Shown here in pieces: positions 6,342 to 56,015 of a stretch of 64,000 nucleotides of DNA. Within the stretch, counting starts at the first letter, position 1. Each line of letters starts with the position of its first letter. A program made the position numbers and the translations under genes. The notes under the pieces were generated by a model. That model saw only the letters and a program-made list of their open reading frames with translations, had not been told where the DNA came from and ran no database searches. This stretch comes from Rhizaria sp. SCN 62-66. Taxonomy: Eukaryota. The stretch lies in the NCBI GenBank assembly GCA_001724265.1, contig MEDY01000149.1, positions 1 to 64,000 of the forward strand. The letters run 5' to 3'.

Positions 6342-6380
<39 letters not shown>

Positions 6381-14196: not shown

Positions 14197-14861
14197 GCAA
14201 TGCGCGAAGATATTAGATTGACGAAGCGCCACTTAGAAAAACCGCTCGTACACCTTTTTTATTAGAGTTTGTTGATGACGTACAGAGCGCTTTGGAGTGA
14301 CACTAAAGTGCACATGTGGCGTTTATCTACATTGGATATACTATTATTACGCACACTTAATCAGCTATACATACATATCACTTCTTTTCTTTTACAGCAA
14401 CTGCCTCTTGCCACTCGGCCATCAATCTTTGTAAAGCTGGGTTACGTGAGGATAAATGATAATTACAGGAGAATCAACATCACTTTACTGTTAGGTCACT
14501 TAAGTTTATGCATCAAAATCACATTTTTCAATAACGCTCAGTCGATGTGCTTTCCCTGGACTCCGCCCGTGTGCCCTCAATCGCAATGTCAACCGCTCTC
14601 GAGTGGCGGCATGGCGGGGGGTCGGGGTGTGTCCAGCGGATTCGGTCTGCGAAGGGAGTTATTGGACGCCATTTCTGGGCCATGGATCATATTGTTTAGA
14701 ACTGTACTCTGCACGAAAGACGTTTATTTATGACTAATTATTCGCTATTTATTTTCTGAACTTCTTACGACGCTGGAAAACTGCTCATATTGTGCGAAAC
14801 CCTATCACTCTCCTTTGCCCTCGTCACTCGCCCTAGGCAAGGCCTTCCTACCCGCGCGCCG

Positions 14862-25062: not shown

Positions 25063-27885
25063 ATGCCCTTCCCGAGGTTTTCGGGTTTCGCACTGGGCTA
25101 CACTGTTGATGAAGATGACATTGATCAACTCGAACAACGAGGTAGCGCTGTTGCAGAGGACGCAGAAGACAGTGCACCCGACTTCGGCGACGGACTGTAC
25201 GATGACCCGGTGTTGGACCCGTCCACCGACACCACCTCCCGCGCCTTCCCGGGCTTCATTGCCGACCTCGTCTCCTGCGCCCCCACCCTCGCCGCCGTGA
25301 CCGCGCTGCATCACTTCTTCAGGGCCGACGCGCCCGACCGCCCGTCGGCGTACACCGAGGACGGCAGCGACATTGCCCCCTGGGTCGAGCACCTGCTCCT
25401 CGCGCTCCAGGTGCCCGAGTTCCTCGTCAACTCGCTCGCCTTCACCGGCGACAACCAGCGCACGTTACGCCAGAAGGTCACGCTCGCCGTGTTCATCGAC
25501 CTGATCGGCAACACAGCGCTGCGGAAGCGGCTGGTCGCCGCCGGAGCCCTCGCGGCCGTCGCGCAGCTCATCACCGTGACGTGCGACGTTGTTCTCATGA
25601 AGTCGGCTGCGCGGTTCATCGACTCGGCGCTGTACGAGCGCGCGTACCTCGCCCCAGAGCCCTGTCTGACTGCGCGGCGCGACGCGCTGGTCGCGATGCT
25701 GCCGCACGTGCAACAGGAGCTGCTGCATACGCTGCTCTCCCCGCCGCTCGACCCCGCGCAAGCGGACCGGGCGTACTTCACTTTCACCACTGTCTGCACG
25801 ACGGTCGCGACGCTGTGCAGCCCGACGCTGGAGCCGCCGCGGTACACCGCGCTGGCCGGCTACGTCGCCGTGGCGCGCTGCGTGCTCGCGCACAGGCACT
25901 TGGACGGGGACAAGCGCAGCAAATAGTTGTGCTGGACCGCGCTCGAGCTGCTCATGCGCGTGTTCGTGATCGACTGCAGCGGCAGCGCGGCAGACGCGCG
26001 CGCACTCGCGCTCAGCGAAGCGTTCGAGGCCGTGATGAAGCTCGTTAGTGACCCAGGCAAGGTGAGGTTGAATGCTTACAAGGAGTCTGAGACCCTTCAC
26101 CTCATGTCTGTCCTGCACCGTTGCGCGCTCGCACTGAGCGACGCAGAGATGGATCTCGTGTTCACTTAGCCACGCGTCGACGCGGTCTGCGCCGCCTTGA
26201 ACGCAGCGTTGAACAATAACGAAGTTTCCCCCAAGTTCCTGCAAAAGGGCAGCTGGATTGCCGTGCTTGCCGGTCTTTGCGCGCGCCTGATCGAGGCAGT
26301 GCCGGCTTTCCGCACGTGGTACGCCGCGAGCGCGCTGAGTATCTGTCTGCCGAATAGGCTTGTGCCGCCGGAGAAGGCGTTCGCAGAGCACCACGCAGAC
26401 GTGTGCTTCATCGTGGCTAACGCGGCGCGGCTCTTTGCGGCGCTCATGTCAACGGCAGAGAACGCGTCGCAGGCAGCGCTACGGCTGCTCACCAACGGCG
26501 CTGTTGTGTTTTGCACAAATGCGCTCCGGTTTAGCTCAATGTGGGGCGACGGCTGCGGTCTGTACACGGACAACTGGGTCGGCATCACTGGCAAGTCCCG
26601 GTGTGGCCGGCCCAACAAGAAGGTCCGGACCGGGCTCAGCGCTGACACGGCGGAGCGGCTCGTGCGCGCGCTCAGGCTGATGATCGCGACGCGCGATACT
26701 GCGGCGCCCGGCGCAGAGACAGAGGAGCGCGCACGCGAAGACCTAGTGGAGCGGAACCCCTTTGCCGCTCAGTTTGTTGAGTTACGCGGAATGCAGGCGC
26801 TGGAGCTGTTGCGCTACGCCGATAGCATGGTGCAGGATGACAGCGAGCCTGCGCTGCAGGAGATCGAGCAGCTGCAGTCCCTGCTCGCGCGCATGGCTGT
26901 GATCGCGCCTGCGGCAGTCTCGGCCGACCGCGCTGCGGAGCTTGTGCGGCGGCGCCAGACGGCCGCAGACGTGCGCCCGTTTGTCTCGTCGACCGGCGTT
27001 TCGTGCTCTGAGCGGACTGCGCTCGATGTTTATATTGCGAGATACTTGCAAGCGAGCGGGGTGCCGGAGTTTTCTCTTCGCAGTCGGGAGCCATTTACGT
27101 TCGGTGGGCGCGCCCGGGCGCCTGATGCTCCAACGGACGCGGCGTTGGCTCTGATGCAGGCGCGCGCTCGGGAGGAGATGATTCACTGCGCACACCAGGA
27201 GATGTCTGGCGGCTCCCAGATGCAGGCGGACATGGTGATGATGGCAACGCTTTTCGACCCCCAGAGTCAAAAGCTCGTCGACCATTCATTCGACATTCAG
27301 CTTGACGATGAGAGATTTCCGAGCCACGCAATGCACTTCCGCGCCGCTTCGTTTAACAACGCTCTCGGGCAATTTGTTCACAAGTGCGTGGTTCCGAACA
27401 GTGGCGGCTTAGCAGCGGATCGGCCATTTGTCACCCTGTACACTCGACACACAGCGATCCCTTGTGCCGCCACAGCCGCGCCGCAGCTTGCAACGGACAT
27501 CATCTACGGCGAGTACGACGTGGCCGCCGCTGCGGCGACCGTACACCCTGCCGGCACGGTGCTATTTTACCCGCGCCACGTCACGCCCCCGCGCTACTCC
27601 GACACGCGCGTTGCGGACGTGCGCTCGAACGTTTCCAAGTCGTGCTCCACGATGTGGTGCCTTGTGTTCAAGCCCTGTCCGGCGAGCCTGCTGCCCGGCG
27701 CAGTGCCCGTCGGCCGTGTGGTGGCGAGCGAGGGGAAGAGGCTGTCGGCGGCGGACGATGAGAGCGACGCATTACCCTTCGACGCTGATGTCCTGGCACG
27801 CTTTGCGGCACTGGCCGAAGAGGGGCCGTGCTGCGGCGGGCAAAACCCCAGTATGATCAAGATAGTGCAGTTCAAGAACAAGTGA
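25063..27885 (+). CDS. Alpha-helical (ARM/HEAT-like) hypothetical protein of ~940 aa with two in-frame TAG codons (25924, 26167)
   Basis: ORFs 25063..25926, 25927..26169 and 26197..27885 share one frame and are separated only by TAG. Amphipathic helical segments (RKRLVAAGALAAVAQLI, FVELRGMQALELLRY) resemble ARM repeats. Ends in TGA. Confidence 0.65.
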
Positions 27886-35100: not shown

Positions 35101-38100
35101 CGCGTTACAGCGCAGTGCGCGCCAGCTTTGTGAAGCGCCGTGGGAGACTGCGCACAGCTATCTCGCTCCGCACTCTGCCCTGCCGACCCGCGCTGCCGCA
35201 GCTGCTGTTGCAGCGATCGCAGCGGTGGCTGAGCTCGCGGCCGCTGCAGCGTCTGCTGCAGCATTGGCTCCGTCGGCTTCTGCGACGCCTTTTGATGCAG
35301 CCTCTGTATCACAGAGCAAGAGCCCGCGGAGCAACAGCGACTTCGGCGACTCTGCGCTGCCCAACGCGACCGCAGTGCGCTCATTGCTGCAGCCGCCGCC
35401 GCGACGTTTCGACTCATCACCACTGCCGCCTGCGCAAGCCGCACTCTCCGCTACTTTTGTCGGGCCGCGTCTGACCGCCGCTGCGCACGCCGCGCGCGCA
35501 GCCGCTGCGGCTGCCGTCGAGCGGACGGCCGCGGCGTCCGCCGCGCTGCGTGCGCGCGTTGAGCTGGAGCGCGCACGCGCGCAGTCTGAGGCACTCGCGC
35601 ATGCGCGTACGGCGCGCGTTGCGCCGGCAGTGACTGTAGGCCATGAAGACATGCTTGTACTGGCTGAAAGCATTGCTGCAACAGACTCTTCTGAAGGCAA
35701 GAGCGACGGCGATGATGACATGCGTGCAGTTAGTACGGGAGACGGTGCGCGCGATGGCGAGAGTGACGAAAGCTGTTCTACCGCACCCTATGCGTAGTTG
35801 CTGCCGGATGCGCCCTGTCGCTGCATGTCGCGGGCGTTCCTATCTGGCGATGCGCCGCTGTGGACTCTAGCCTCAGTGCCACTGCTTTTGGGCGAGCCCG
35901 GGCCCGCACACAGTCAATTTCACGGTTCGGCCCGTGAACCGCATCTGCGCTTGCAGTGGGTCGACGCCCCCGCTTCGCGACCGGTGTTTGAGCGCGTTGC
36001 AGCCAGCGAGGAAGAATGGCTTGCGCTCGTGCATGCACGCACATTCGTGCTCGCCTCAGCCTCTGCTGCACTGAGATCCGGCTCGAACCTACCTGATGCA
36101 CCTTGCTGTGCTGCTCTTCCGCCAGCATCGCCCTCGCTTGCTGCTTTGTTGCTACTGACGCACACACGCCTTGCGCTACGGCCCTCGACTGCGACGCTCG
36201 CAACGCGTATTGCTGCTGCTACTGGTGCCATTGTTGGCACTGCAACTGCGACTGAGTCCAGCACCCTCCCCGGTGACGCTGTTGCGGACTCCACAGCATC
36301 GACCGTCTCAACCGCGTCCACGCACAGATCATTTGCTCCCACAGAGAGGATGCTGACTGTGGCATCTGCGGCTGCATCGCAGCTCGCCGCTGGCGCCGCT
36401 GCTCGTCGAGCCTTTGTGTTCGGCGCGCTTGGATGCGGATGGGGTTGTGACACCCTTGCTCCTGATGCCACTGCTGCGGCGTTGCCTCTGACTTTCCTGC
36501 TTCCGCCCGCCTGTCCGCTGCCTGTTCCTGCTGATACGACCCTCAATCCAGCGCCCCCGCTCACGGTGCCTGTGCTGTCAGAGCTGCCTCTTGCGCCGCT
36601 CCTGCTTGCGGCCGTGGGCGCACTCGCGCACGCCGCTGCCGCCGCGGCCACAAGCGCGGCCGCGGGTGCGGGGGTAACGTGGCTGTCTGAGAGTCTATTC
36701 CAGAGCGCGCACTGGCCCGCGCTACTGGACGCAGCCGTTATGGCGTCACAGGCCGCGCCCATGTCCGCCGCTGCTGCAGCCACAGCGCGCGCGGCGCGCG
36801 CACAAATGCGACTCCGTGATCGTGCCGTCGCATCGCAGCTCACCGCGCTCGCGGCCGCACACAGTGCTTCTAACGCGAGCACCGCTGATTGGCTGTTGGC
36901 GGCGCCAGACTGGGCGCGCTCGGAAGCGCTGGCACGTGCGGGCGCGGGCGTGTCTGCGTGTGCATTGGCTGCGGACTCTGCTGCCAAATGGTCCATCTAC
37001 TGGTACGTACGTGCTGACGCTGCAACGGCAGCTTCGCTTGCTACCACACAGTCCCCGAATGTCAATGCAGGTGACGGCGCTAGTGCCGCCAAGCCTGAAG
37101 CACCAGGGACGGTGGGCGTGGTAACCGTGTGCACTGAGTCCGCCGTGGCCGCTGAGGCAGAGACGCTTGCCGCAGTGCCATTCCGTGCAGGCCCGCTGAC
37201 TTGTGCTTGCGTCTATCATAGCGCAGCGTATAATACGGACTCTGCCTCGGACGCTTTACAGCAGAAACCAGGACTGATCCCGTCTGCTCCGCGACTGCGC
37301 TGTGTGTCGCCCGTGTTGCCGCAGTCAAGCTTGTTTTTGTCTGAGACGCGCACGATGCTTGCAGCTTATTGGCCTTGTACGGATGCCCCACTGCTTTCTT
37401 CTGTGACGGTGACGCAGTCGGCACCCTATGCTGCAACCGCGACAGCCTCGGCTGCTGCGGCTCTTTTAGTGCTGTTGACGCCGCACCCCGGGTGGGCGCG
37501 CCGCCTTGCTGCCGCAGCTGCAGCGACCACTGCGATGGAGGGCGAGCGCGGCTGCAATCGCCGGCGCGAGCGGCAGCGCTGGCGTCTGGCGAACATTCTC
37601 GCCGCGCCCGGCACCGCCGCCGCCGAACGCAAAGCTCTTGGCGGCGCAGACATAAGCGACATTGATGCCAATGATGCGGAGAGCGACGACGAGAACGGTG
37701 CGAGATATGGCATTGATACAGTCGGCGCTGAGAACGACGGTGAGCGCGCTTCGCTGGTCGGGGCAATGACGGAGCTGGGCCGCGAGGCACTGTACCGCAT
37801 CACGCATGCGTCCTCGCTTGCAGCTGCTGCAGCTCTCGCAGAGGCGGCAGCGGAGGTAACTGCGTCGGACACTGCTGCTGCGCGTTCTTATGGTGTATCA
37901 CTATCTTTGCGTCCTCCTAGTGAGCAATGGGAGCTGACCTCGATTGCGCCACCTCTGCCGCAAAGCTCGCCCACACAGCCGCCACCGCCATCGCTTGTTG
38001 CAGCTGAAACCACGCGCGCGGTCGCGCTACGTTTGCTTTGTCGTCTTGCACAACACGCGCGCGCCCGCGCCGCTGCGCTCGAAGGCTCTACACCCCACAA

Positions 38101-41100
38101 AACGATTGACGCTCGATCCGCAGCGCTCGATGCGGCTGCCCGGTGCGAACGCAGCGCTGCGACTGCGCGTGCACTTGCACTGGGTGCGTGGGCGTTACTG
38201 CTGCCGCCGCTGGCCTTGGCGTACGCTGGCGCAGACGCCGACGCTGACCCTGCAGCTGCTGCCGCAGGTGTCGGTGCCGGTGGCGGCTCTCCAGCTGCGG
38301 ACTCAGTCGTTACCGCGCGCTTTGGCGACTTCAAAGATAACAGTGCACCCAACAGTGGCAGCATCCGTGTGACCGGTACCGTTCCGATGCCAGCCGGTAG
38401 TATGCGTGTCGAACTTGACCCTGTGTCGCTAGCGCGCGCCGCTACGGCGGCTGATGCGAGCGCTGCCGGTGGATTGTCGCCAGCTGCCACAGTTGCACTG
38501 ACAGCCGCTCTGGGAGCCGCAGTGCCACTTGCAGTTGCAACCATTACCACGGTCTCTACAGACACGCTGCCCCTGAGCGGCGCAGCGTACAGTGGTCCTG
38601 GCGTCACGATTGCAGTGCAGCAGCAACCGCCACGCACTGCTGTGCGACACACCGTCACGCTCTCGGCGTGGGGACGATGTGCGAGCGCGCCCGTGCCCGC
38701 GCTCTCCGCATCGTCGCTGCTGCGTGGCGGCATGCTGGACCTGGCTGTGACGCTTCTTGCGGTCAATCCCAGCCCTGCGCCGCTTGCCGCCGCACTTTCC
38801 CCCGCCGCTGCGGCGTCGCAGTGGTCTGAATACGTCGGCACTGACTTGTGCGGTGTGCTTGCGAGCCACCTCGCATGGGGCGTTGTAGAGCGCCTTGTGC
38901 GTGCGCGGCCGATGGACGTGCGCGTTCGCGTGCGGAAGGCCCCTGCACCCGCGTCACCCGCGCGCGCAGCCGCACGCGCGCTGCTGCGTGGCCTTGATGA
39001 AGCCGCTGTCCTGCACGATAGACTGCGTTCTGGGGCACGCGACCGACAAGGCGGCAAGGCACGTCGTGGCAGGGACGACCTTGATGGTCGGTGTGACGGT
39101 GAAAGCGACGATCAAGCTGGAGATGAAGGCGAAGTTATCGATCTCCGTCTTGCCCCCGAGCTTGAGGCCGACTTGTGGAGTGGCATGGATACAAGAGCGG
39201 CGACCGCGTCATCAACTTCTGCGGCCTCTAGCAGCAACAGTGAGAGGAGTAACGTTGGCCACATTGACGCTGGAGCACCGCCTTCAGGGTCACTCATGGC
39301 ACGACTTGCACACAAGTCTTATCTCGCAACATTGCTGGGGCGATTGTCCAACGCGCGTCCGCGCGCGCCGTTTTTTGGAGTCTCGCACCTGTCGCTTGAG
39401 CTCTTTGGCAGTGACCAAGCCATGTGGAGTCTTGCGCCTGCACTTGCAGCGTGCGTGCACGCGCACAGCCACGGACATGTCCACGGGGATGGCGACAGCG
39501 AGGGCGCGCCTCGTGGCCGCGTCCTGCTGATTGCGCCAACAGGGCTTGGCGCAGCACTTCTTGCGAATGCCAGTGCAGACATTGCACCGCAAGACTCCAA
39601 CGGGACTGCCACCACTGATGGCTCTGCAGGTCCGCGACTTGCAGTTGGCGTGCGCGGCGCTGAGGCGGTGCTTGCCGCTACTGCCTCCGCGTTGACACCG
39701 CCTACGTTTACCACGCAGTACACTGCAGAGTCAGGAGCCAGCACTGTCTGTACGTTTCCATCTGCGGAGGTTCTCGTGCTCTCTGCTCTCACGTACGCAC
39801 CGCGTCCCACGACCGCCGCTGTAGCAGGTGTTGCGCCTGTTGTCACTGAAGCAATCACTGCTGCGGGGCGCGTGGGCGGTGCATGGGACGCCGAGGCGCT
39901 GCCATCGCACGCACTACGTAGACTCTGGACATACACGCGCTGTCTTGCAACGCTCACAGCCGCATCACAGCCCCGCGCCAGCGCGGGCGTGATGCGTGCG
40001 CGCGTTTTTGTGCAGTGCGACTTGCGGCCTCTGTGGGCTGCGGCAGATGCGCACGCACGTCGGAGTCGTCGCTTCTCGTCAAAGTGTCTGAAACAAGTCT
40101 CCACGGCCAGTACTGACTTCAACGCGGGTGCCACTGAGCCCGCGTCAGCGGCTGCAGTTGCGCAAGCAGGCTTTGCCCCAACGTCAACACTGCAGGCCTT
40201 TTTGGCAGCGTGGACTGAGAAGCTTGCTGCTGCGGAACGACGCGAGGCGCGGCGAGCACATCGGACACGCATGCTCACACAGAAGCTGCGTCTTGCCGGC
40301 GAATATTCGCTGCGATCAGCGTCGGCTGCTGCGTCCGCTGCGTTGTCGGCGGTTAGCATGAGCGACGATGAAGCTGAAGCGTGTGACACTGCAAATGTCA
40401 CGATGGCAGATGCTGTTGTTTCTGCAGAAGGCTCTGATGAGGATGAAGACGAAGATGAGCTTGACTTTGAGTTCCCTCTGTCAGCTGCGCAGCAGGCGCG
40501 CTTTAACGGACAAGGACAAACTGGTGGTGATGACGACTATGGGCAGGATGACTGGGCCGGCACGGGCTATTACGCTCCCCTGGCTCCGTCCCTAGTTGAG
40601 CCCTTTGCTGCAGGTGACGCCACGGCGACTGGGAACCCCACAGAGACTAAAGCTGTTGCTGCGCTGAACGTTCCCCGCTCACGCCCGGTGCATGTGCCAA
40701 CGCAGGCTCGCGCTCTGCGCCTGTTGTGTTTGACGACTCCGCCGCCGTGGCGCCCGCTTCCGCACGCAGTGGCAGCTTCGCCCGCCGCCGGTGAGCGCGG
40801 TACATTGACTGTAGATGCAGTTTTGCGTGTGTCGTGGTTGCCGCCGTTGCCGTGGCTACCCGTCGGCCCCCGCCCAGTGACTGTGGCTGACCTTGCCGCA
40901 GCCGCTGAAGAGGCCGTGCGGTTTACGCCGCCAGAGCCCGCTACAGCACCATCCGTAAATGATGACGCGAGTAGCACAGAGAAGGCTGCGGAGGCAGCAA
41001 GGCTTGGACTTGCGCTGAGCAATGCAGCGTCGTCAGCGGCGACAGCGGCCGCAGTTACGGCAGCCTCTCAACTTGAAACAGCATTACTGCAAGCGTTCAG

Positions 41101-44100
41101 TCTACATCATGCAGCTTACGTGCGCAACAAAGATGATCGATCAGGACTTGCGACGCAAATGCTTTTGTCTCTTTACCAGCATGCGATTGGACGTAAAGGT
41201 ACGAATTAAATGTCTCTATTAATGATGCTGCAACTAATGTGCACCATGTGTTTGTGTTTACAATGGCTTGTGTGCTTACAGTTTCCTTGTAATTCGTATG
41301 TTTCTTTTAGCTGTCACTGACATTTACCGCGGAGAGACGTCACCACTGTTGAGCTTGGCGGCACCACCTTCGGCGGGCTCGGTCTCTCCTTGGTCTCAGT
41401 CGCCACTTGACTCTGTCATTGCGCTGTACGTCCAACAACGCGCCCATGCGCGCGCGTTGCGCGGAGCGGGGGTCACGGTTACCAAGCGCCATCGTCTTGG
41501 ATCAGTCTCGGTTGGCATCGCTACTGCGGGTGGCGGCCTCAGCGCCGACTCAGACTCCGACCCTGACTTGGATGCCGGTGCAGATTCAGGCGTGCAGACG
41601 CGGAAAACGATTCCTTTACGCGATCTTCTGTTGCAGCTTGGCGTGTACCATCGTTTTAAGTCTTTTGGCAGCTCAAAAAATGCTTCTGGGCAAATGCCAG
41701 AGTGCCGCCGCCGTCGCTGGCTCATCACCCTGGTTGGACTTAGCGATGGCGCTGGCGCCAGTAACAGCGATGGGGTAGCCGCCAGCGGCGCCGGCGCAGC
41801 GGCAAGCTCGGGTGTGGGTACAGGGCCTGGAATGGCGACTGGAGCAGACGGTGCCGTCGCTGCTGTTGCGGCGGCTGCGCGTGCCGGCGCTGGTGCAATT
41901 GTGCCTACGGTTGCTGTCTACAGTGCGACTGCTGCGGCGTCAGTGTCCGTTGCTGCCGCTGCTGCGGCTGCCCCTGTCCGTCCTCATGTGGCAGGTGACC
42001 TTGCTTCTGTGCGTAAAACATTGCCCAGAATCTGCACTGTTTGTGCGATTCTTGCGCGTGATGGCGTTCAAGCGGACTCGACGGCAGACGTTGCCGCCGC
42101 CGCTGCTGGAACGCACCTTACGATTGTGGACAGCAACGGCCAGACGGCGCATGTGTCTGACGACCCGTATTCTGAGTTTGCCTTCACGCGTGATTTGATA
42201 TTTCTACCACTGCATCGTCGCTTCATTGCGCGTGCGCTGCTTTCTAGCTATGTTGCCCCTGAGTTTACCGGTCCCTCGTCAGTATTGGCCACCGTTGCGC
42301 GTCTGCAATCTGCGGGCCGCTCACCCCATTGCACGCGATGTGGAGGGCCAACTGTGACCCCGCCTCAGTCTCCGCGCACAGGTGGCGGCGCCACTGATGT
42401 CGGTGTGCGCCTTTGGGCTCTGCACCCGCGTCTTGTTGACGCCACTTGTGGCTGGATTGGCGACCGCGCCTCCGCACCGTCCTCCGCCGCCGCCAACGAT
42501 GACGCCCGCACGCGTGCGCATGCCCTTGGCGAGCTGGTGCGCGCGCGCGAGCGCTGGCAGCGGCGCGTGCGTGGCATTGCGACTGCACATGATGAGGCTG
42601 TTGACCGTGCGATTGCGCTGGAACGCGCAGCGGCAGAACGCATGGTTGCAGCGGAAGAGCGATGCAAGCTTGTAGCTGAAGCCGCCGTTATAGCGGCCAA
42701 AGATAGTGTCATTGCTGCTACACAAGTACTTGCATCCGTGCCGGCGGCATCAAGTGTCAAAAGAGGTGGGAGTTGGAGCGATGCATTGGGTGCTCGCCCT
42801 GGAGCTCATCGTCCCCACACCGCGCATGTCACGCGTCGCAATCCGTCTGTTTATGTTACCGCATCAACAGCCCCAAGCCTTGCCGCGGAAGTTGAGGATG
42901 TTTCGGGGAATGGCGAGTCAGTGCTTGTTGCTGTTGCCGGGCGTCGTCTCGGTAGCGCAATGGCACGGATTGACCTTTCTGAAAGCTATGGTTTGGGCGA
43001 CAGTAGTGTTGACACTGCTCCCAATGGGACGTTCCAGCGCAAGGACGAAGCTTCGTCAACTCTCACTCGGGAAACAACTGAGCCCACGTTGCTAAATAAT
43101 GCCGCTTCTGATGCCTCCAATACTGTGTCAGCCTCACGATTCTCGCGTCCGCGCACAGCGTACGCGCTTGGTTCATACGCTGCACCACTTAAACAGTCTG
43201 CACCTGCTCCTACCAAGCAAAGCAATGCTGACTCTGCCGCGACTATCACGGAACGCAAGCCTGTTACAACAACTGTTGCTGGAACAGTCGCCGCCCGCGC
43301 ACGCGCAGACGCCCGCGTAGCAGTCGCTGCGCGTGCGACGCTGTCGGCATACACAGCCTTGCTCTTGCCGCTTCCACAAGCGGGGACATCATTCATGCGT
43401 CGCCGTCACGATTAGCTGGCACCTCCAGACCCAGACGTTGCGTTGCTGTTAACCGCGACTGGCACGGGCGAGAGCGTTGAAGAAGGCGGAGTTGCGAGCA
43501 CGAACGAAGTAGGTCGCGTGGTGGTGCGTACGACTAGGTCTCGGCCAGTGCATCCGTCGTGGGGGCCGCCGCGGCCTTTGCCGCCGTCTTTCCTACCCTC
43601 TCAGGCGCAGCGCGCGTATGCTGCTGCTGCAGCCCACGCCCGCGCTGAAGACGCGCTACGTGGATACATGCATACCGAGCAAACGCGCCACGCACTAATG
43701 GACGCACGCTACCTGCGCTCTCGCAAAGGCTTAAATGAAGCGGTGGCTAAGGCCAACCGCGAGGCTGCTGAGGGTGCTGCTCTGAGGCCTCCTAGCGCAA
43801 GCACGACTGCTTCGAGCACGATTACTAGCACCGAAGGCAACGGTGCAGGACTGGGGCGTAAGCATCGGCCGCGCGGATACACTGGGCCTATCGCGGCCGC
43901 TGATGCCGCAGGCCGCGCGGCGCGGTCAGCTGTTGAACAGGCGCTTGCTCTCATGACACCAGCTGCTCCTGCAACTCAGACTTCGGCTCCAACACGCAAA
44001 GGGTATGTGGCCACTGCGGCTGGACAAGCTGCGGCAACTGCCACTGCTATTGAATCTCCAAACGCTCACTGCAGCGCTGATGCCACGCAAGATGGAGCAG

Positions 44101-44552
44101 CGCCTGACCAAACACAGCCGCTCATCCTCAATGCGCAACGCGCTTTTGACCCAACAGATGCTCCTACGTTGCTTCAACAGCGCCCGCGCACAGCCTTACG
44201 TGCCGGCACGGCCGCCAGCACTGCCAAGCGCCCGCAGACGGCAAGATTTTCCTCCTTGCCCATGCGGTCTGCATTGCTCTCAACGGCAAGCAGCACCACG
44301 GACAAAGACGTGGCCGGCATAAGTGCTGTCGTCGCCATGGATCTTCCTCTGCGGCAGTGTGGGCTGGCATCATGCGGCGCACTTCCTACGGCTCACGCAC
44401 ATTCTGCAGAGGCTGGTTCTGGCGTTAGCTGTGGACGTTGTGGCGAGTGGTACTGTAGCGAGACACACAGGGCAGCCGCGAAGGCAGCCCACCACGAGCG
44501 GGAGTGCCTCGTGCCATCTAAGGTCGCAGATTGGCATGCGCACTGGAACTAA
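32114..44552 (+). CDS. Giant (~4100 aa) Ala-rich protein with C-terminal MYND-type zinc finger; exons 32114-41198 and 41311-44552; two in-frame TAG (35795, 43413)
   Basis: ORFs 32030 and 35798 share one frame and are split only by TAG. An intron joins them in phase to ORF 41268, which continues through TAG into ORF 43443. The C-terminus CGLASC...CGRCGEWYCSETHRAAAKAAHHEREC is MYND-like. Ends in TAA. Confidence 0.65.
41199..41310 (+). other. Spliceosomal intron (112 nt)
   Basis: AAAG|GTACGA donor, AT-rich body, TTTCTTTTAG acceptor; a phase-1 join gives in-frame K-A-V-T-D. Confidence 0.8.
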
Positions 44553-44979: not shown

Positions 44980-47900
44980 TTAATAATGGAAACGGTTCGC
45001 AGAGCTCGCAAGTGAAGCTGTGCGCAGTGCCGCACCGCGCGCCAGTGAGGCGCGAAGCCATAAAACTACGGCCACAAAGGCAATGCTGTTGCGCAGCCAT
45101 GGCGAGCGGCGCACGCGGGAGTACACCAGATACGCGTACACAGCCGGCACCGGCAGCAAGCGCACAAAGGCGGGCAGCGTCAGCCGCACTGTCCGCGCAC
45201 GCACATCCCCTGTCACAGTTAGCTCGCCAGGACGCGCACCGTCGCTACCGCGGCGCTCCAGCATGCGCTGGTGGCGCGCTTCAGCCGCAGCACTGTTCGC
45301 ACTGTTTCTACGCTCGCGCTCGCGTTCTTCGTCATCGAGATCGGACTCGAAGTCCGAGTCCGTGCCGGCGTCGGAGACAGCAGCACCGTCAGCGTCGTCA
45401 TCTTGGTCGCTCTCAGGCAGCTGCTGCAGCTGCTATTGATGCAGCTGCTGATGCTGCTGCACAGTGTTGGGCGCGATGGCGGGCAAGCGTGTCACGTTGG
45501 CTGCCGCGCTCTCAGCACGCTCGATGGCCTGCTGCTCGCGCTCGCGCCGGCGCTCGCGCAAAGCGCGGCGGCGGCGCGCACGCACGAGTCGCGCAACGGC
45601 CCGCTCAGCATCTTCGAGCCCCCAGTCGGGCTCTTCGGCGGCGGCCGCAGCGACGGCGGCGCGCTCGGCGTCCTCCAGCCGCGCCAGAGCGCCGAACAGA
45701 GCGCGCTGCTCCACGCGCGCCGCCTCGCTCAGCGGCGCTGCGACGACAACGGCGCTGCTCGATGCGCCGTCGCCCGCGCCCGTGCCGGCCGCGACAGCCG
45801 ACGCGGCGGCCGCGGTGGCAGCGGCCTCGGCGGCCGCGGTCGCGGCCTCGACCTCGGCGCGCTTGGCGTTAAGCGCGGCGCGCGCGGCCAGCACGGTTTG
45901 CGCCTTGCGCCAGTCGTCCACAACGGGCCCCACGGCCGCGGCAGTGACCGTGAGCACGACTGCCAGAGCGCTCGCGCGCGCCGCGGCGGACACAGCGGCG
46001 AACACGGCGCGGCGGGCGGCGGACCGCGCGGCAGGCGAGAGTACAAGGCGCAGCGCGAAGAGCGTGGCGGCCGTCGCGCCCGCGGTCTGCACGGCGGCCG
46101 CGGCCACTGGGGCCGGCGGCAGCGCGGTGTAAGCGCGGCGTATCGGCGCCGGGATCAGTGCAGGGGCGCGCGCGCGGACCCAGGCGCCGACGCTGTCGGT
46201 GACGAGCGCGGTGCCGTACTTGGTCGCGGCCCACAGAAAGGGCGCCGTTGGGTCAAAAACAGGTCCGCGGCGGCACGGCGCAGAGAGAATGCGCTGCACG
46301 TGCTTGCGGAAGGGCGTCACAAACGGTCCGGCCGCTGCGGCAGCAGCCGCAGCGGTAGTGGGCGTCGTCGGGGCCACAGGCGTCTGAAACTGCGCCGATA
46401 CAGGCATGTGCGCGCGCGAGACGGAGAGCGCAGACAGCACAGTGTCGCCGCTGAGGGGCGGCGCCTGAGTCGCGCGGGGACGCAGTGAGCGCAGCTGAGG
46501 CTGTGATGCAGACGGACGCGGATGTGCACCGTCTTCGCTCTCGCTCTCGCTGCCGCTCCAGCTGCCAAAACCACGGAGGCCGCCGCTGACACGCACAGTG
46601 CCACACGAAGCCTGAAGACCGGGCGCAAGACCGGACGCAGGGGTCTGCAGACTGGCAGCCTGGCCCAAAGCCTCGAACGCGGCGGCCACCACCGCAGCCT
46701 CGGTCTCGGCGACAGACGTCGGCGCAATAGGCAGCGGCGGTGCCGCAACATGCGTCGCGAGAGCATTATCCTTGTTGTTCGTCGCAGCTCCACCGTCATC
46801 GTCACTATCGTCGTCGTTGTCATCGTCGTCGCTGCAGCCGAGCCATGTTGTGACAAGCGTCTCTACCTCGGTCGCTGCGGCCCGCTCGCGCTGCTGCTGC
46901 TGCAGCTGCTGCCGCGCCAGCTGTTGCCAACGCGGGACGCGCGACGCCGCTCTCCAGCGGGCGTCCTCGGCCTCATCCTCATCCTCGCCCATTCCAGGCA
47001 GCACGGCGGCGGCGGAGACGGGGGCAGCGTTAGCAGCCGCGGTTGTGGGCGGCCCAGCGGGCGCCATTGTTGCTGCGGCAGCGGCGGCGAGCGCGCGGCT
47101 ATCTTCGCCAACTGCGGGCGTGCGGCCGCCGATGCGGAAGTCGAGCCGCCCCATCGCGCGCGGCGCGCGGCTCTGATGCACATGCTCAGCTGCGGTCGCC
47201 GTCTGCGCGCCGGTGCCGGTGCAGGTGCCAGTGCCAGGGCTCTCGCCCTCGTCTTCCTCGATCACCACGCCCAAGCGCGCAGCACCCCCGGGCGTGGCAG
47301 CGGCCGAAGCGGCGGCAGCGCTGGCGTCGTCGCTGTCACTGAGGTCGTCTCCGAGCAAACGACGCAGCGGGCGTGGCAGCGCATCGGCGACGCGGTTGGT
47401 CAGCACGCGCTGTGCCGACGCGGGCAGCCGGTTTAGAACCACCTTGCGGTCATCGGGCGTCATGTTGAACGCGATGAGCGACACGACATCTGAGAATACG
47501 CCGCCGGACCACTGTGTCTCGACCAAGTCGAGCAGCGAACGGTCGAGCAAAGTGGCGCGCATGCGCTCGACCTTGGCCAGTGCGCTCGCGGGCAGCAACG
47601 ACATCACGCCGGCCGCCGCACCGCCGCCGCGCACGGTGTCGGCCACCAACGCCGTCGCGAACAGCACCGCCGCGCGCGCCAACAGTGCGCACGCAACGCC
47701 CACGGCGGCCAGCAGGTACAGCGTCTGCGGCGACAGCGCGATGACCAGTCCGGACAGCACGAGCAGCAGCGCCGCGGCCGCCAGCGCGCGCGGAGACGCT
47801 GCGAGCGCAAGGAGCGTCGGCAGCACGGCGCGCGCGTGGCGGCGCAGGAAGCGCAGCACCGCGCGGCGCGCTGAACGGAGGCGCGCGCGCAGGGCGTGCG

Positions 47901-50900
47901 CCAGCGGCGAGTGCGCGTAGACCTCAGCACACGCGGCAGCGCAGTCGCGGGCGTGTGCGCGCGTGCTAGTCAGCGCGGTGGCGGCCGACGCGCGCGCGAG
48001 CGCTGCGAGCGCGGCGGCCGCAGCGGCCGGGGAGACGAGCACAAGCGCGATGACGTCGGCGATCGAGCCCGAGAGCGTCATCGCCAGCGCCTCAGCGTCG
48101 CGAGCGAGTGCGGCGCCGCTGTCGGCAGTTTCGTCGGTGTCAATGTCAGTCTCGTCGCCTGAGTCGGACGGCGCGTCCGTACCGGCGCCCAGTGTCACTT
48201 CAGGCGCATACGCGGACGCAGACACATGCATCGTCTCTGGCCCAGGCCCAGCCACAGAAGCAGAAGCAGCAGGCGCAGAGGTGCGGATGAGAGCGGTGGT
48301 GTGTGACGCGCCCATCGCGGGCTCAGACAGCGTAGACGCAAGCTGCACAGCGGCCGGCGCGGCGGCAGTGACGACGCCGCGGGCCGGCGCTGAGAGCGGG
48401 GGGGTGCGCGCGCCGGTGCGGCGGGGCTGGCCTGCAGCGCCGTGGGGCCGCCGCAGCCGCAAGCCGGCGCTGCTCACGGTCTCCGTGGCGGCCGCGGCGT
48501 CGGCGGCTGCGGCGGCAGCGTCATCGGGCTCCTCCCGGTCAGAGTCGAGCGCGTCAAGCGCATCGTTGTGGCCCGACATGCCCTGCGCACGGTCCGCGCG
48601 CGAGGACGACGTCGACAGCGCAAGCCGCTCGCTTTCACACCCGCTGTCGTACGTGAAGCCCGCAGCAGCGGCCGTGGCAGCGCCAGCGGCTGTGGCCGAC
48701 ACGACCACGTCGCCGTGCACAGGCGGTGAGGCTACGGCTCTGCGCTGGCCTGCGGCCACGGCGCTGTCAAGCGAAACGACCGAAGACGCGGGCGAGGCAA
48801 GCAAAGGCGCGCGGCCCGGTGCAGAGACGGCCACGACACCACTCGAGAGCACGCTGCCATGCATCGCGAACGACGCAGACGCGGACGCAGACTCGAAATC
48901 GACATCAGCGTCTGTGCCAGCGAATGACAGATTGGCGAAGCGCGCGTCCTCGTCGTCATCGTCGTCGTCGCCGTTGTCGCCGCTGTGGTCGTCATGGTGG
49001 TCACTGGGCACGTCGGCGCTGTCCGCGAGCGAAGCCGGGCGCGTGAGCGGCGACCGCGGTGGCTGCGGGCCTCCCCACGCCGCCGAGGGGGCAGCGCCGC
49101 CGCTGTGCGCGCCGCCACTCTGTGCGCCGCCACTGTGCAGCGCAGCGGTGCCGTCCGTCTCGACGTGGCCACTGCTGCCGGTCTGCCCGCTGTTGGTGCT
49201 GTTGCTGCTGGAGCTGCTGAGGAACAACCCATTCGCGGCGGACGACGCCTCGCTGCTCGCGGGGCCAGCTGTAGCGGCGCAGGGCAGCGCGCCAGAGCCC
49301 GAACCCGAGCTGGCGCCGCCGCTGGCGGAGGTCACCAGCGCGCTGTCGCTGCCCAGAAGACTGCTAGGCGCGAAAAGCGTCCGGTGCGCTCGTGGCAACG
49401 GCGAGTCGTGTCCACTGGCCTCGACTCGAGCCTCGGCTCTAGACTGCGAGTCGCGTGCAGGCGTCTGCGTGCGCGCCTCAGCCAGCGGTCTCTCTTGCGA
49501 GCGCATGTATATGTGCGATGGCGATGTGGCCGCAGATGCAGACGCGGGCAGCGCAGAGGCGGCAGCTGCAGCGTTGTATGGCGTAGCACCGTAGACTGAG
49601 GCAGCACGCGTGGGCGCGGCGTGCAATGACGGGCTCGTATACGCCATCGCGGAGCCCAGTACCACACGCTGCGGACCAGTCAGCTGTGAGAGTGGGTCTG
49701 AATCGGTATCACCGCTGTCGACGTCAAACACGGCTCCAGCGGCCCGGCCGGCCGCGGAGGCCGCGAGCCGGGCCCCGGCGGTCGCGGCGGTGGTCTGCGC
49801 GCGCGGGGGCGTGTTGGGCGCCGACGCAGAGGCGGGCACGGCAGCGGCGACGGCAGCAGCGGCAGCAGCAGCAGCAGGCGATACAGTATCAGTGGGCGCG
49901 GAGACGGCTCCTGTGACAGCGACAGAGGGCTGGGACAGCGGAAGCGCGCTCTTGGCCTCGTCGGCGTCAGGTTTCGCAGCAGCAGTAATGTTGGCGTTTG
50001 CAGTGTCGGGGCTGAGCGGTGAAGCAACAGCGGCGGCCACAGCGGCGGCAATCACCGCGGCCGCGGCGGCGGTGGCCCGGGCATCGCTGTTGTCGTCGTC
50101 GCCGTCGTCGCCGACGCCGCCTGGCACGACGTGGGCGGCTGTGGATTCGTGTCTCGTCTTCACGCCAGTCCACAGCTTTGCGCGTCCAGCCTTAGCATTT
50201 GCGACGACGGTGGCGAACTGCGTGCTGGCCTCAACAGCAGTCTCATTAGCAGCAGCAACCTTGGCCTCAACAGCCGTAGCAGCGACGGCCATAGCAGCAC
50301 CAGCCTTGGCAGCAGCGGCCATGACAGCAGCGGCCTTGACAGCAGCGGCCTTGACAGCAGCGGCAGCGCGGCGGTCGTCTTTGCGTGCGCGGTGCGACTG
50401 CAACGGTGCATCTTCCGACGCCCAGTCTGAGAAGAACACGCATCCGTCGTCGCCGTCGCTCTCCGCATCACGCGCACTCGCGCTCACGGCGTTGCCATCG
50501 CGGTCATGGCCGCTCTCGCCGTCGCTGTCTCCGTCGCTGCGACCGGTGCCGGCGGCGTTGAAGTCGACGTCTGAGTCGGAGCCTGAGCTTGAACTCGAGC
50601 TCGAATCGAATAGCCTGTTGTTGCTACTGTTGCCGTTGCCGCTGCCGTTGCCGCGGCCGCGGCCGTGGCCGTCGCGCACTGCCGCGCGTGGTGGAGTCGA
50701 GATCTGGCCAGTCGCAGCGCCAACAATGGAACGGGCGGGGGACAAAGTCAAAGCAACGGCCGCAGCCGTCGGCGCTGCTGTTGCAGACGCAGACACCGCC
50801 AGCGAAGCCAGCGAAGGCGACGACGACGACGACGATGATGACGAGGATGAAGAAGGCGTCAGCGGCGCATAGTGCCGGCGCGCCTGCAGTGCAGGCCCCG

Positions 50901-51465
50901 CTGCGCCCTCCGCCGCCGCAGCAGCAGCGCCAAGAGACGCCGCGGAGCTTGCGGCGAGCAAACCGGCCACAGTGCCTGCAATCGAAGCATACGCCACTGG
51001 CGGCGACGGCGGCGACTGCGAGTGCGCGCTGAAGCGCCCCGACTGGTAGCTCGGCGTCTGCGCAGCGGCCGCGGCGACGGCGGCGGCGGCGGCCGCAGCG
51101 GCAGCGGATGCGTTGGCGGAGGAGGCGCTGGGTGGAGTGGCGTGTGCGTGCGCATGTGCGTGTGCGTGTGTAGCGGAGCGAGGGCTGGGGGTGCTTGCGC
51201 CTGGGCTGGAGCCTGAGGTGGAGTCAGAGCTGGTGCTTGTGCACGTGCCCGTGGTCGCGGCCAGCGTGGGCGAGCCTGGCGCTGCGGGCGTCGAGGGAGA
51301 CGAACGCGCGCTCATTGCACCGGCGGCGGAGACGGCGAGAGGGGGCGAGCCTGGAACGGCGCGCTTCAGGGTTACCTGGGCAGGCGAAATCAGGTGCTGA
51401 ACGACGCCTGTGGGGTGGTAAATGTTACCGGAGTAGGCGTGCGTGTCGCCGCGATTGCCGTCCAT
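44980..51465 (-). CDS. Large (~2160 aa) low-complexity membrane protein with a central hydrophobic segment and C-terminal TM tail; one in-frame TAG at 45435-45433
   Basis: ORF 45433..51465 ends at TAG, but the frame stays open for 56 codons (QLQQLPESDQDDDADG...) into ORF 44980..45264, which ends in TAA at the edge of AT-rich spacer DNA. Confidence 0.7.
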
Positions 51466-52129: not shown

Positions 52130-55100
52130 TTACGCAATCCACTTAAGCTCCTTGAACTTAGCGATGAGCTTGACATCCGTATCGGTGAGCTCGTCGTTAT
52201 AGAACTCGAGCAAATCGTCGGTCGAGTGCGAAGTCATGTACGACACCCACTCGTTCGTGTCATCGAAGTGGCGTCCGTAGCACGGCGGGTGAGCAAGCCC
52301 GGTCTGATCGACGTTGATCGACACCTCATCGCCCTTGTGCGCGATGTCCACGGGCTTATCGTCTTTGCGGATGCCCGTCACGCGGCCCAGCTGCAGCTTC
52401 TCCTCGCGCGGGATGAACAGCGGCGTGCCAACGCGGAGCGAGCCGTTGACGATCTTAACACCGCACACAAGAGGATCAGAGTTGTGGAACACGTAGTTCT
52501 TGCCCATCTGCTTCACCACCACGGGGTACACCGGCTTCGCGGCCAGACGCTGCGACTCGCGCACGGCCTTGAAGTGCTGCACGCAGTTGGTACCAAGCGT
52601 GTAAATGACGTCAGCGTCGAAAATCTTGACGCCCATGCGGTCGGCCAGCGCCGCGGCCTCAGAGTCGACCTTGACGTCGAAAGCCAGAAGCACCGCGTAC
52701 TCGGGCTTGTGCTTGTCGAGCTGCACGGAGGTCTTGGTGACGGACGCACGGCTCACGGTGCCGATGTCGAAGCCGGAGACGGGGATGTCAGAAGCGGCCA
52801 AGAACGTCAGCAGAGCCTCGAGCGAGCCGAGAGAGGATGCGTGGACGAAGACACCGTTGTTGTTCATGTCGAGCTTGGAGATGACGGACTGGAGATCCTC
52901 CTGCACACGGTCCTTGATGTCCTCGAGATCGTCGCGCGGGCCGCAGACGAAGAGGGAGGAGCCAGCGAGCACGCCGCTGAGGTTGGGCGCGGAGATCTTG
53001 CAGCCAATGGCGGCGCGGACTGAGGGCGCTGCGATGAGCTCGGTCTTGACACGCGACTCCTTAAGCGGGGGCGGGATCAGCAGCGAGCGGATACGCGTGC
53101 ACACGGGTCCCGAGAGACCGGCGCAGACGATCATGTCCTCCTCCTTGAGCTGGCCGTTGATGAGGATGACGTCGAGCACAGTGCCGTGACCGGGCAGCGA
53201 CTTAACTTCGAGCACGGTGCACTGGAGCTCAGTGTTCTTCTTCTGCGCGAGACGCTGCTGCAGACGCGTCTGCGACATGTCGACGATGAGGGACAGCAGA
53301 TCGGGGATACCTTCACCGGACTTCGACGACACGGGCACGATGGGGTGGTACGAATCCATGTCGTCAAGCGTGAACTCCCAGAAGGGCTTGACGTTGATCG
53401 ACTGCTCGGCGAAAGCCACGAACGTGTGGTTCATCAACTTCTCGAACTCAAACGTAACGTTATCGCTTACCTTGGACAGGGACTGGCGGATCGGGTTGAA
53501 GAAGTTCGCGTCGTCCTTGGGCCAGCCGTAGAGCGCGTCGACCTTGGTGACGGCGACGATGAACGGCGTGTTGCGGGACTTCAGGATCTCGATCGACTCG
53601 AGCGTCTGCTGCTGCAGACCCTTCTGCACGTCGACAATGAGGATCGCGAGATCGCACATGGACGAACCACGCTGGCGCAGCATCGAGAAGGACTCGTGAC
53701 CAGGGGTATCGATCATCAGCATACCGGGCATGTTGGTCGGCAGCTCCTTGCGTGCGGGCTCATCGCCCTTCTCGCCGCCGCCGCCCAGGGTCAGCTTCTC
53801 CATCATATCGCGAATGTTCTCCGCGGGGATGTTTGTCGCGCCGATCTGCTGAGTGATACCACCGGCCTCACCCTTGGCGACGTTGGAGTTGCGCAGCCGA
53901 TCGAGCAACGACGTCTTACCACTGTCGACGTGGCCGAGAATGACCACGATGGGCGCGCGAATGCCGCCCGCGGAGCCGCCGCCGACGGCGGACATGCGCT
54001 CCTCCTCGGCGGCGGCCGCAGCGGCGCGCTCGGCCTCCTCAGCGGCCTTGCGGGCGGCCTCGGCCTCCTTGATCAGCCGGGCCTCGATGTCCTTCTTGGC
54101 GGCATTGAGCACCGTCTCGGCCTCCGCAGCCGCGGCGCGGGCGGCGGGGATCGCAGTCTTGTCCAGCGCGGTGATCTCAGCCGTCACGGTCTCCAGCTCG
54201 GCCTTAGCGGCCTGCGCAGGAGTCAGCTCCTTCACGGCGGCCTCGTCGGCGGCGGGCTCGGCGGGCTCAGCGTCCCACTCGTCAGCGACTTCCTCCTCCC
54301 AGGAGTCCGCGGCCTCGGCCTCGGCGGGCGCGTCGGCGCCGGCCTCAGCGGCCGCGGCGTCGACCACAGCCTTGAGCTCGGCCGCGCGCTCCTGCTTGGT
54401 CTTGAGCTCGGCCTGCGCCGTCGCCAAAGCAGCGGCCGACGTGCGGTACGCCTCGACGATCGCGGGCTGGGTCTCGCCCACGAGCGCAATCGCGCGCTCG
54501 CGCAGCGCGGCGGCCGCGGCCTCGGCCTTCTCGCGCGCGGCCGCGATGCGCTCCAGCTCGATCTGTGCCTTGGTCTTCTGCACCACCTTGGGCGTGACAC
54601 GCTTGGGCTTGTTCTCTTCGCTCTCCCCAGCAGCACCGGCTGCGGCGCCCGCGACCAGGCCGGAGGCGAGGAGGTGCGCGCGCTGGCGCTCGAGCGCCTG
54701 CTGCTTCTCGCGCTGTGCCTTGGTGAGCAACGTGCCTTCAGCGCGGCGGCGTTCACGGTCAATGCGGCGCTCCTCGGCCTCGCGGGCCTTGACGGCGGCG
54801 GCCTCGGCAGCCTCGGCCTCGATGCGCGCGATCTCGGCCTTCTGCGCGTCCTCAAACTCCTTCTTCTGGCGTTCGTACTCGCGGCGCTCCTCTTGCTGCT
54901 TCTTGATCAGGGCGATGCGCGCGTTGGTAGCCGGGTTGGCAGCCGCGGCCTTCTTGGCGGCGGCATCGGACTCAGCCTTGGCGTCAGCCTTGGCCTTGAG
55001 CTTGGCCTTCTCAGCGGCCGCCTTCTCCTCGTTGGCCTTCTTCTCGGCCTCGGCCTTAGCGGCGGCCACAAGCTCGGGGTCCTCCTCGCCGCGGGCGAGG

Positions 55101-55201
55101 GCGGCCTCGCGCTCCGCGGCCTTCTTGGCCTTGACGTCGCCGAGGATGTCGTCGAGGAAATCGTCCTCGTCGTTCTTCTTCTTACCCTTGTTCTTAGACA
55201 T
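52130..55201 (-). CDS. eIF5B: Eukaryotic translation initiation factor 5B (IF2-family GTPase)
   Basis: GTPase motifs [30 protein letters not shown] and [22 protein letters not shown] and YGRHFD; charged N-terminal extension. Intronless, TAA end. Confidence 0.97.
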
Positions 55202-56015
55202 GGCTCGAACTGTCAGTCGGTAACGGAGCGAGAACACGCGATCCGAGTGGGACGGGGGTCCAACAGGGCAGAGAGAATACGCGCAGAACGAAAGAGCGAG
55301 AGAGTGATGCGGGAGTGGGGAAGAGGTGCGACAAGCGCGGACGGGTCAAAGGGAAGAATAAGAGGGGTAGATGAGAAATAAGAACATAAGAAAGATAGGC
55401 CTATGTTGCAGCTTGTGGGATATGAAGCCATCATGTGCTGGACGGATATACAGCGGTGCTTAGGGTATGAATGCGATCCGGATCGACATGAAAAGACTTG
55501 TGGTGCGCATGGAATTCGACGATACACAGGGGGCGAGCGCGGCCCTCTTGAGTCATATGAATAGCGTAGGAATACAGCTAACTGCGCAACCCTACCGAGA
55601 TGAGGCGCGCAGCTTAACCCAGGGGCGGCCACGGGCAAATCGGGCAGATGTTTCACTCTCCTTCGATCGATGCGCCGCACACCACTGACTGTGAGCAGCG
55701 CGCCTCTGTGGCGCCAAGCCGAGCCAGACTGAGCAAAGTCGGCAACGGATGGGACAGGCCAGAAACCGCTGTTATTTACACCTCGATTTGGCGGATAATC
55801 CATCATCAAAGTTTGGTGATATGGTTGTCAACGACAAATGAAAACGTTTACTATAAGATCATTATATTTTAGTTGCGCTCGTTGACATATGTGTTGCGCT
55901 GTGTATCCACAAAATTCCGCTCTGACAGCCCGTCTACACTGTCGACTCGACTGGCCCTCACACACCCCGCCTCGGCCTTTCCCCTTGTCCCTGCATCTCT
56001 AGAGCCGGGTTCACA

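Follow-up and report, generated by a model that had tools for sequence, protein, structure and literature searches.

Nuclear genetic codes that read UAG as an amino acid and keep UAA as a stop are few, and the residues known for them from the accessible portions of the sources are Leu, Gln and Ser; Glu is known for UAG only where UAA is reassigned too. The UAG-only reassignments described there comprise Iotanema spirale, Hartmannula and Trochilia (Gln), the rhizarian exLh and the TARA phyllopharyngean metagenome-assembled genomes (MAGs; Leu), and Scotinosphaera (Ser, as cited in PMC11687900). Here we describe a window of 64,000 nucleotides (the whole stretch of DNA analysed; Rhizaria sp. SCN 62-66, contig MEDY01000149.1, positions 1 to 64,000 of the forward strand), which carries an in-frame TAG at 45433-45435 on the minus strand, within a CAG-rich repeat of a long open reading frame (ORF). 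The window is contig G000:C149 of a 34.9-Mb eukaryote genome in 714 contigs. From this genome we propose Glu as the single meaning of UAG, with UAA and UGA as stops, at a probability of about 0.84.

The features of the locus on which the argument turns are as follows.

45433..45435, minus strand: in-frame TAG, a sense codon, most likely Glu (QQHQQLHQ-E-QLQQL); from the reading frame and a contig of study P2
45418..45459, minus strand: CAG-rich QQH/QQL repeat surrounding the TAG; from the sequence
44980..44982, minus strand: true stop TAA with AT-rich sequence beyond; from the sequence and the profile of guanine-plus-cytosine (GC) content

The TAG is codon 2062 of frame 51618-44980, and the minus strand around it reads GTG CAG CAG CAT CAG CAG CTG CAT CAA TAG CAG CTG CAG CAG CTG CCT. 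A first-pass annotation, made from the sequence of the window, had described a TAG in place of CAG within a QQL repeat, followed by about 150 open codons and a TAA; the description holds, the number of open codons between the TAG and the TAA being exactly 150. The GC content is 0.77 before the TAG, 0.65 after it and 0.43 beyond the TAA, so that the sequence is coding-like until the TAA. The TAG is real and no assembly error, because contig 6 of run X3 (study P2), which spans 45001-48745 at depth 7.2, carries the same letters there, the sole differing letter of the contig being at 45268. A base-call error, which the first-pass annotation had proposed to check in the reads at 45435, is thereby excluded: the contig from the other study shows TAG, not CAG. 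This support comes from assembled contigs rather than a raw-read pile-up, and the RNA contigs listed do not reach the site; X1, the run that may be the source, is not part of study P2, but studies of like year and habitat may belong to one campaign.

A frame-specific coding model, which treated all stop triplets alike, was trained on 660,493 bases of the genome (the window and 60 further stretches, 19 of them chosen around kinase genes and 11 of those for a TAG, so that the TAG density is somewhat inflated). In these 660 kb, coding signal was present on both sides of 26 TAG, one TAA and one TGA, and ended, before any filtering, at nine TAG, 73 TAA and 60 TGA. The ratio of internal to end-like triplets is 26:9 for TAG and 2:133 for TAA and TGA together (Fisher p = 7e-21); UAA taken by itself, internal once against 73 end-like cases, is not a sense codon. 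After removal of end calls shadowed by other frames, the gene-end-like stops numbered 65 TAA, 45 TGA and 3 TAG at the loose threshold, 53, 34 and 0 at the middle and 43, 23 and 0 at the strict one, gene ends being model-based calls that use no transcript ends. UAG is almost certainly read as a sense codon in this genome and, as far as the model calls gene ends, UAA and UGA still terminate and UAG is missing from the confident ends. The first-pass annotation was thus right that UAG is sense, and the nonsense allele that it had left open is disfavoured by the genome-wide asymmetry.

The window holds five in-frame TAGs in four long ORFs, the remaining four being the following.

25924..25926, plus strand: in-frame TAG, codon 288 of ORF 25063-27885, which is a member of a family of about 49; from ORF analysis
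26167..26169, plus strand: in-frame TAG, codon 369 of ORF 25063-27885, in a column with Glu in 4/12 paralogues and Gln in 0/12; from alignment
35795..35797, plus strand: in-frame TAG, codon 1280 of frame 31958-41209, with 1803 open codons beyond; spanned unchanged by an X3 contig
43413..43415, plus strand: in-frame TAG, codon 726 of frame 41238-44552, with 378 open codons beyond; spanned unchanged by X3 and X4 contigs

Elsewhere in the genome in-frame TAG was found in conserved genes, namely those for eRF1, kinases, ankyrins, Suv3 and TOR. Scaling up from the 660 kb, some 1,500 in-frame TAGs or more would be expected in the whole assembly. TAG makes up about 0.5% of the Glu codons of ordinary genes and 2.8% of those in one fast-evolving family; in conserved domains it is scarce, roughly 1 per 8,000 codons by a hand estimate from match lengths.

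The residue was judged from alignment columns that contain a TAG. The family of ORF 25063-27885 has about 49 paralogues, and its alignment of 43 rows (41 of 51 matches and two repeats of L086) holds 27 TAG, one TAA and no TGA, 24 of the 27 TAGs being in columns deep enough for scoring. Summed over these 24 columns, the log-odds are +6.2 bits for Glu, -9.8 for Ser, -19.5 for Lys, -20.4 for Gln and -40.3 for Leu; Glu is the sole positive residue and stands 26.6 bits above Gln. The TAG columns are like true Glu columns (p = 0.37) and unlike true Gln columns (p = 7e-5), one of them having Glu in 32/36 rows and another in 19/33. At the TAG column of eRF1, 114 of 120 homologues have Glu, six have Asp and none has Gln. 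A neighbour-based classifier of Glu and Gln contexts (area under the curve 0.77), applied to 39 sites, two of them also in the family set, rejected pure Gln (p = 0.005). Finally, the Pfam bit sums over 10 domain sites, added by hand, were 705.1 for Glu, 703.0 for Gln, 701.9 for Lys, 696.1 for Ser, 693.8 for Tyr, 689.0 for Leu and 687.5 for Trp, which rules out Leu, Trp, Tyr and Ser by at least 9 bits (Leu being 16 and Ser 9 below Glu). Two further sources added little: among 24 segments with an internal TAG, a Pfam scan found one, the ubiquitin domain, in which a domain covers the TAG, and TOR and Suv3, aligned to solved structures, have Ser and Asp/Ser at the TAG, which says little on Glu versus Gln. 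The scoring of residues at TAG columns, which the first-pass annotation had itself suggested, places Glu over Gln both in the eRF1 column and in the 24 family columns, and the Gln that it had favoured is most likely wrong.

Several observations weigh against Glu at every site. In L097, an eRF1 from a metagenome, the TAG column of eRF1 is occupied by Gln; three of the 24 family columns are Gln-rich, with Gln at 34-62%; on Pfam, Glu leads Gln by only 2.1 bits. TAG contexts are less Glu-like than those of ordinary Glu codons (p = 0.02 by gene and 0.002 by codon), and the best-fit mixtures in the family and context tests contain 70-80% Glu-like sites. One TAG lies in a ubiquitin domain where 8/8 other copies carry CAG, and another faces Gln in a repeat of the same gene. 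The TAG at 45433-45435 itself sits in a Gln repeat and has the most Gln-like context of all sites.

The weaker signal for its own residue at TAG may be due to the mutational origin of the codon, because CAG is a single transition away from TAG, and GAG a single transversion; about a quarter of the TAGs, that at 45433-45435 included, look Gln-derived by C-to-T change. Rare AGR codons for Arg, used as a control in the same alignment, fall in columns with Arg at 0.21, against 0.445 for CGN, and with three times more Lys, the residue of their transition neighbour. At 45433-45435 the TAG probably arose from CAG in this way. With UAG read as Glu, the change there is most likely a tolerated, non-synonymous Gln-to-Glu substitution in a low-complexity tract; the synonymous CAG>TAG change put forward in the first pass had the origin probably right and the residue most likely wrong.

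The genome also contains a tRNA that could read the codon.

G000:C84:76008-76080, minus strand: CUA-anticodon tRNA gene; a kinase and a kinesin gene lie on the same contig

This gene scores 58 bits on the Rfam tRNA model, and its minimum-energy fold has both acceptor and anticodon stems formed, though at z = -1.5. ARAGORN labelled it 'Pyl' under the bacterial code; the cloverleaf is standard and closest to tRNA-Glu. Among the tRNAs of the same genome, it is identical at 47/73 positions to Glu(CUC), at 40 to Glu(UUC), at 36 to Gln(CUG) and at 32 to Gln(UUG). With both Glu tRNAs it has the first five acceptor pairs (UCCCA/UGGGA) in common, and with Glu(CUC) also the T-stem; it is without the G1-C72 and U73 of tRNA-Gln(CUG). 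The anticodon loop has A37-A38, compared with A37-C38 in Glu(CUC); A37-A38 fits an A36 anticodon. Judged by these likenesses, the CUA tRNA is derived from tRNA-Glu. It is the only CUA tRNA gene found in the genome, and a pattern for Glu-type 5' ends matched it alone. Pattern searches of the genome, one of them widened for Gln-derived CUA tRNAs, yielded neither such a tRNA nor a UUA tRNA, intron-bearing or atypical genes being able to escape them.

With respect to charging, the genome encodes separate cytosolic glutamyl- and glutaminyl-tRNA synthetases (GluRS and GlnRS). The E. coli tRNA-Glu identity set, as far as given in the accessible part of PMC9976931, is represented in the CUA tRNA by U11-A24, U13-G22 with A46, the lack of position 47, U35 and A37; the D-arm and loop features recur in the genome's own tRNA-Gln(CUG) and are therefore non-discriminating. 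Some points here tell against Glu. C36, a determinant of E. coli GluRS in the same source, is replaced by A36, which every tRNA with a CUA anticodon has. Of 506 candidates, 63 were scored in the Rfam scan, and the assembly may be incomplete. A tRNA-Tyr(GUA) gene with a short intron (L008:2709-2793, minus strand) shows that intron-bearing tRNAs, which may escape pattern searches, exist in this genome.

Of the alternatives to Glu as the single meaning, the one that survives best, improbable as it is, is ambiguous decoding, in which UAG would usually be read as Glu but to a real extent also as Gln, either because GlnRS also charges the CUA tRNA or because near-cognate tRNA-Gln(CUG) competes. Both residue tests fit a mixture with 20-30% Gln-like sites, the genome has several tRNA-Gln(CUG) genes, conserved domains contain few TAGs, U35 is a determinant for both GluRS and GlnRS, and glutaminylation of amber suppressors can occur in E. 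coli (PMC9976931, in the part available). However, the mixture is accounted for by mutational origin, the AGR-Arg control behaving alike; the best mixture gains no more than 0.7 log10 units over pure Glu, and the acceptor end of the CUA tRNA is not that of tRNA-Gln(CUG). The reading of UAG as Gln proposed in the first-pass annotation, here an Iotanema-type code (table 15) in which UAA and UGA stay stops, is very improbable. The sites where TAG stands for CAG (the window repeat, the ubiquitin domain and three family columns), the narrow Pfam margin and the Gln of L097 are what it can explain; against it are the 26.6 bits and the column comparison of the family test, the context test, the absence of Gln from the 120 eRF1 homologues, a TAG in a column with Glu in 32/36 paralogues, and a CUA tRNA that is Glu-like where pattern searches revealed no Gln-like one.

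The release factor, too, is altered at the motifs that read stop codons. A single eRF1 gene was found in the genome, and it carries an in-frame TAG of its own in the N-domain, at the conserved Glu107 (L031:1594-1596, minus strand, on G000:C63), identical in the separate assembly L092. Its motifs are GSS for GTS, SKASNIKS for GTASNIKS and YMCDNQF for YLCDNKF, which correspond, in human numbering, to T32S (T in 81/81 covering homologues), G57S and T58K (G and T, respectively, in 120/120) and K130Q (K in 118 and R in 2 of 120); NIKS, E55, L69, S70 and the YxC..F core are kept. In Iotanema, Gly replaces Thr32, the residue in contact with the G of UAG (PMC5304391, in the part available). T32S would be milder than T32G, and residual recognition of UAG is possible, which might account for how seldom TAG occurs in conserved genes. 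Under such leftover recognition, eRF1 could cut its own synthesis via the UAG at Glu107, balancing release factor against suppressor tRNA. The Glu code together with this feedback is unlikely, and the code taken alone is likely. The chance of a TAG in a 440-codon eRF1 gene is about 5% from the hand-estimated density, an after-the-fact figure that is suggestive.

The same intact parts of eRF1 (NIKS, E55, S70 and the YxC..F core, as well as the hydroxyl retained in T32S) might be expected if UAG were still partly a stop, that is, a dual codon or a site of leaky readthrough giving full-length and truncated products; the single CUA tRNA gene and the three TAG end-like calls that persist at the loosest threshold point the same way. 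The probability of such a partial stop is slighter still, since TAG makes up 0/87 of the gene-end-like stops at the middle threshold and 0/66 at the strict one, and some genes have two or three in-frame TAGs. The tobacco mosaic virus (TMV)-type context is CAA-UAG-CARYYA, and leakage of this type had been left open for the present locus, where CAA-TAG-CAG-CTG matches 5/6 bases of the 3' motif. No common readthrough context was seen, though: the full CARYYA motif occurs at 0/39 in-frame TAGs, the +4 base being C in 15, G in 12, T in 6 and A in 6; also, in contrast to TMV-type readthrough, TAG is not otherwise a stop here, and the tRNA is fully cognate. An origin of the TAGs in sequencing errors, nonsense alleles or pseudogene lesions, with the code being standard, can practically be discounted: many do lie in fast-evolving families or low-complexity tracts, but contigs from other studies show the same letters at three TAGs of the window, the TAG of the one eRF1 gene is the same in another assembly, lesions would yield TAA and TGA too, at odds with the counts in the family, and a cognate CUA tRNA exists.

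The code with UAG as Glu could have arisen as follows. A copy of tRNA-Glu(CUC) would have changed C36 to A and gained A37-A38, and cytosolic GluRS would still charge the resulting CUA tRNA. As CUA would pair with UAG and not with UAA, a point argued in the available parts of PMC5304391 and PMC11687900, UAA would stay a stop. In eRF1, the changes T32S, G57S, T58K and K130Q would weaken the recognition of UAG, much of which would have been lost. TAG codons could then arise both from GAG, silently, and from CAG, by C-to-T change with a tolerated Gln-to-Glu substitution.

Several candidate sites were set aside or gave no information. Inspection showed that TAGs in matches to DEAD, kinesin, Ras, myosin, HSP90 and several kinases and helicases were intronic or splice acceptors; these were dropped, as were the kinase sites L066 and L073, which may be splice acceptors. 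Family matches to DHC_N2, AAA, WD40 and GlxRS within the genome contained no usable TAG site. No TAG/GAG polymorphism was seen, no run showing an altered letter at a TAG and the listed X5 RNA pieces covering no TAG site. Two TAAs lie within coding-like frames, one at minus-strand index 3442 of L071, with an ATG and a Gln run directly after it, and one in L208; they may mark a gene boundary, a nonsense allele or rare readthrough. A TGA lies inside a dynein heavy chain match (G000:C164:48099-49313, plus strand), and weak internal-TGA calls came from L065, L073 and L157; introns or boundaries are likely in these cases. Within the window, the genes at 4307-11167 (plus strand, calpain/FAP42-like), 14760-23570 (plus strand, PH-domain) and 52130-55345 (minus strand, eIF5B) have no in-frame TAG and a strong GAG/CAG bias.

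The gene that hosts the TAG at 45433-45435 has the following features.

44980..51465, minus strand: host ORF, running from its first ATG to the TAA and encoding about 2,160 amino acids (aa) when the TAG is read through; Ala-rich predicted membrane protein without Pfam family
47365..47619, minus strand: conserved core of the host protein, with 51% identity to P0370 and matches to P0372 and P0373; from protein search and alignment
46153..46323, minus strand: second conserved block (FxTPF motif), common to P0370, P0372 and P0373; from alignment
45046..45174, minus strand: hydrophobic C-terminal block beyond the TAG, with 63% identity over 43 aa to P0371; from protein search and alignment

The last of these bears out the hydrophobic tail noticed in the first pass. 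The search with the read-through protein gave five matches, namely P0369 (its own tail), P0371 (tail) and three on the upstream blocks, none of which aligns across the TAG itself. P0369 is the window's own 94 aa past the TAG, filed as a separate database protein. P0372, a homologue of 1,670 aa from a relative, is Asn-rich and keeps the core and FxTPF blocks and a hydrophobic tail, all within one ORF; the similarity between its tail and that of the host protein was not significant by BLAST. An Atlas look-up with the core gave no usable match. By these searches the host gene is to be regarded as lineage-specific.

The family of ORF 25063-27885 (plus strand), with its paralogues across the genome, is likewise lineage-specific, has no Pfam match and is rich in in-frame TAG. 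Its member L086 has two copies of the domain, followed by a ubiquitin domain and, after that, a region that may resemble a phage-type intramolecular chaperone.

The genome has GC-rich exons and AT-richer spliceosomal introns. The organism, an uncultured protist, is probably a flagellate with an ordinary mitochondrion, because about 11 dynein heavy chain loci, Suv3, a mitochondrial-type GluRS and a TRAP1-like HSP90 are present (the last two labelled from reading of the sequence). Of the four runs with half or more of the stretch, three are labelled bioreactor or wastewater metagenome and one has no label. The best identities are 70% for eRF1, 79% for eIF5B and 88% for HSP90; in a tree of 33 rows (the query and 32 of 120 hits), HSP90 falls with nine other sequences in a supported group of ten rows. 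The lineage appears new, and a metagenome scan recovered the same organism (L092) and no close relative with eRF1. The fourth-best eIF5B match, P0128, is flagged as unverified contamination in a chytrid assembly, and a relative may contaminate that data set.

The 18S rRNA gene (L034:1501-5945, on G000:C706) is very divergent, with four group I introns and 3-8 mismatches to published cercozoan and exLh 18S primers, although the contig may stem from another organism; such divergence, as in sainouroids, is only a lead. An ORF near 2160-2640 of L034 resembles one for a His-Cys box homing endonuclease. The ubiquitin genes L084, L085, L087, L088 and L091 start with MSMQIF, and the complete ones are single monomers ending in GG-HPQ or GG-HSQ, followed by TAA; C3 carries a tandem array of three ubiquitin genes, of which two have internal deletions. 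The MSMQIF start recalls the insertion in rhizarian polyubiquitin (PMC12930898, PMC13746701 and PMC6133090, in the parts available) and is likewise only a lead, no monomer junction being seen.

Among known codes, that of Oligohymenophorea sp. PL0344 is like the present one in that UAG is Glu and the CUA tRNAs are nearest to tRNA-Glu (69-93% there, 64% here). According to the accessible part of PMC10553269, it differs in having UAA as Lys, UGA as sole stop, ten CUA tRNA genes and some 10,000 Pfam-aligned UAGs; the present genome relies chiefly on UAA to end genes, yielded one CUA tRNA gene and uses UAG sparingly. Peritrich ciliates and Blastocrithidia also read UAG as Glu with a tRNA-Glu(CUA) from duplicated tRNA-Glu, yet they read UAA as Glu too, via a UUA tRNA, and in Blastocrithidia UGA is Trp, with eRF1 S70G, and the change there is tied to falling GC content (available parts of PMC12153298, PMC5304391 and PMC11687900). 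In the present genome a UUA tRNA was not found, eRF1 retains S70, UGA is often used as a stop and the coding DNA is rich in GC, the last of which runs against the AT-pressure route proposed for Blastocrithidia.

In the accessible literature, excluding subscription papers, theses and abstracts, we found no report of nuclear UAG as Glu with UAA and UGA as stops; this combination, predicted here from sequence, would be new among the few nuclear codes that split UAG from UAA. Since the genome, the suppressor tRNA and eRF1 are in hand, the eRF1 residues that separate UAG from UAA could be tested directly, with a bearing on amber-suppression engineering in eukaryotes. A UAG as sparse as this makes routine annotation split genes, as in the case of P0369, and other sparse codes may hide likewise in protist MAGs.

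The closest likeness is to the UAG-only class of nuclear reassignments, whose tested features this genome has: internal UAG, UAA and UGA as stops, and a CUA tRNA, predicted to read UAG alone, with no UUA tRNA found by the pattern searches. The Leu and Ser codes of that class (exLh, the TARA ciliate and Scotinosphaera) are not matched in the family columns, where Leu and Ser score far below Glu. With Iotanema it shares a change in the GTS loop of eRF1 at T32, which is T32G there (PMC5304391, in the part available) and T32S here; exLh has L69A, whereas here L69 is kept and G57S, T58K and K130Q are added. From the class as listed it differs in its residue, Glu being absent among the Gln, Leu and Ser recorded there.

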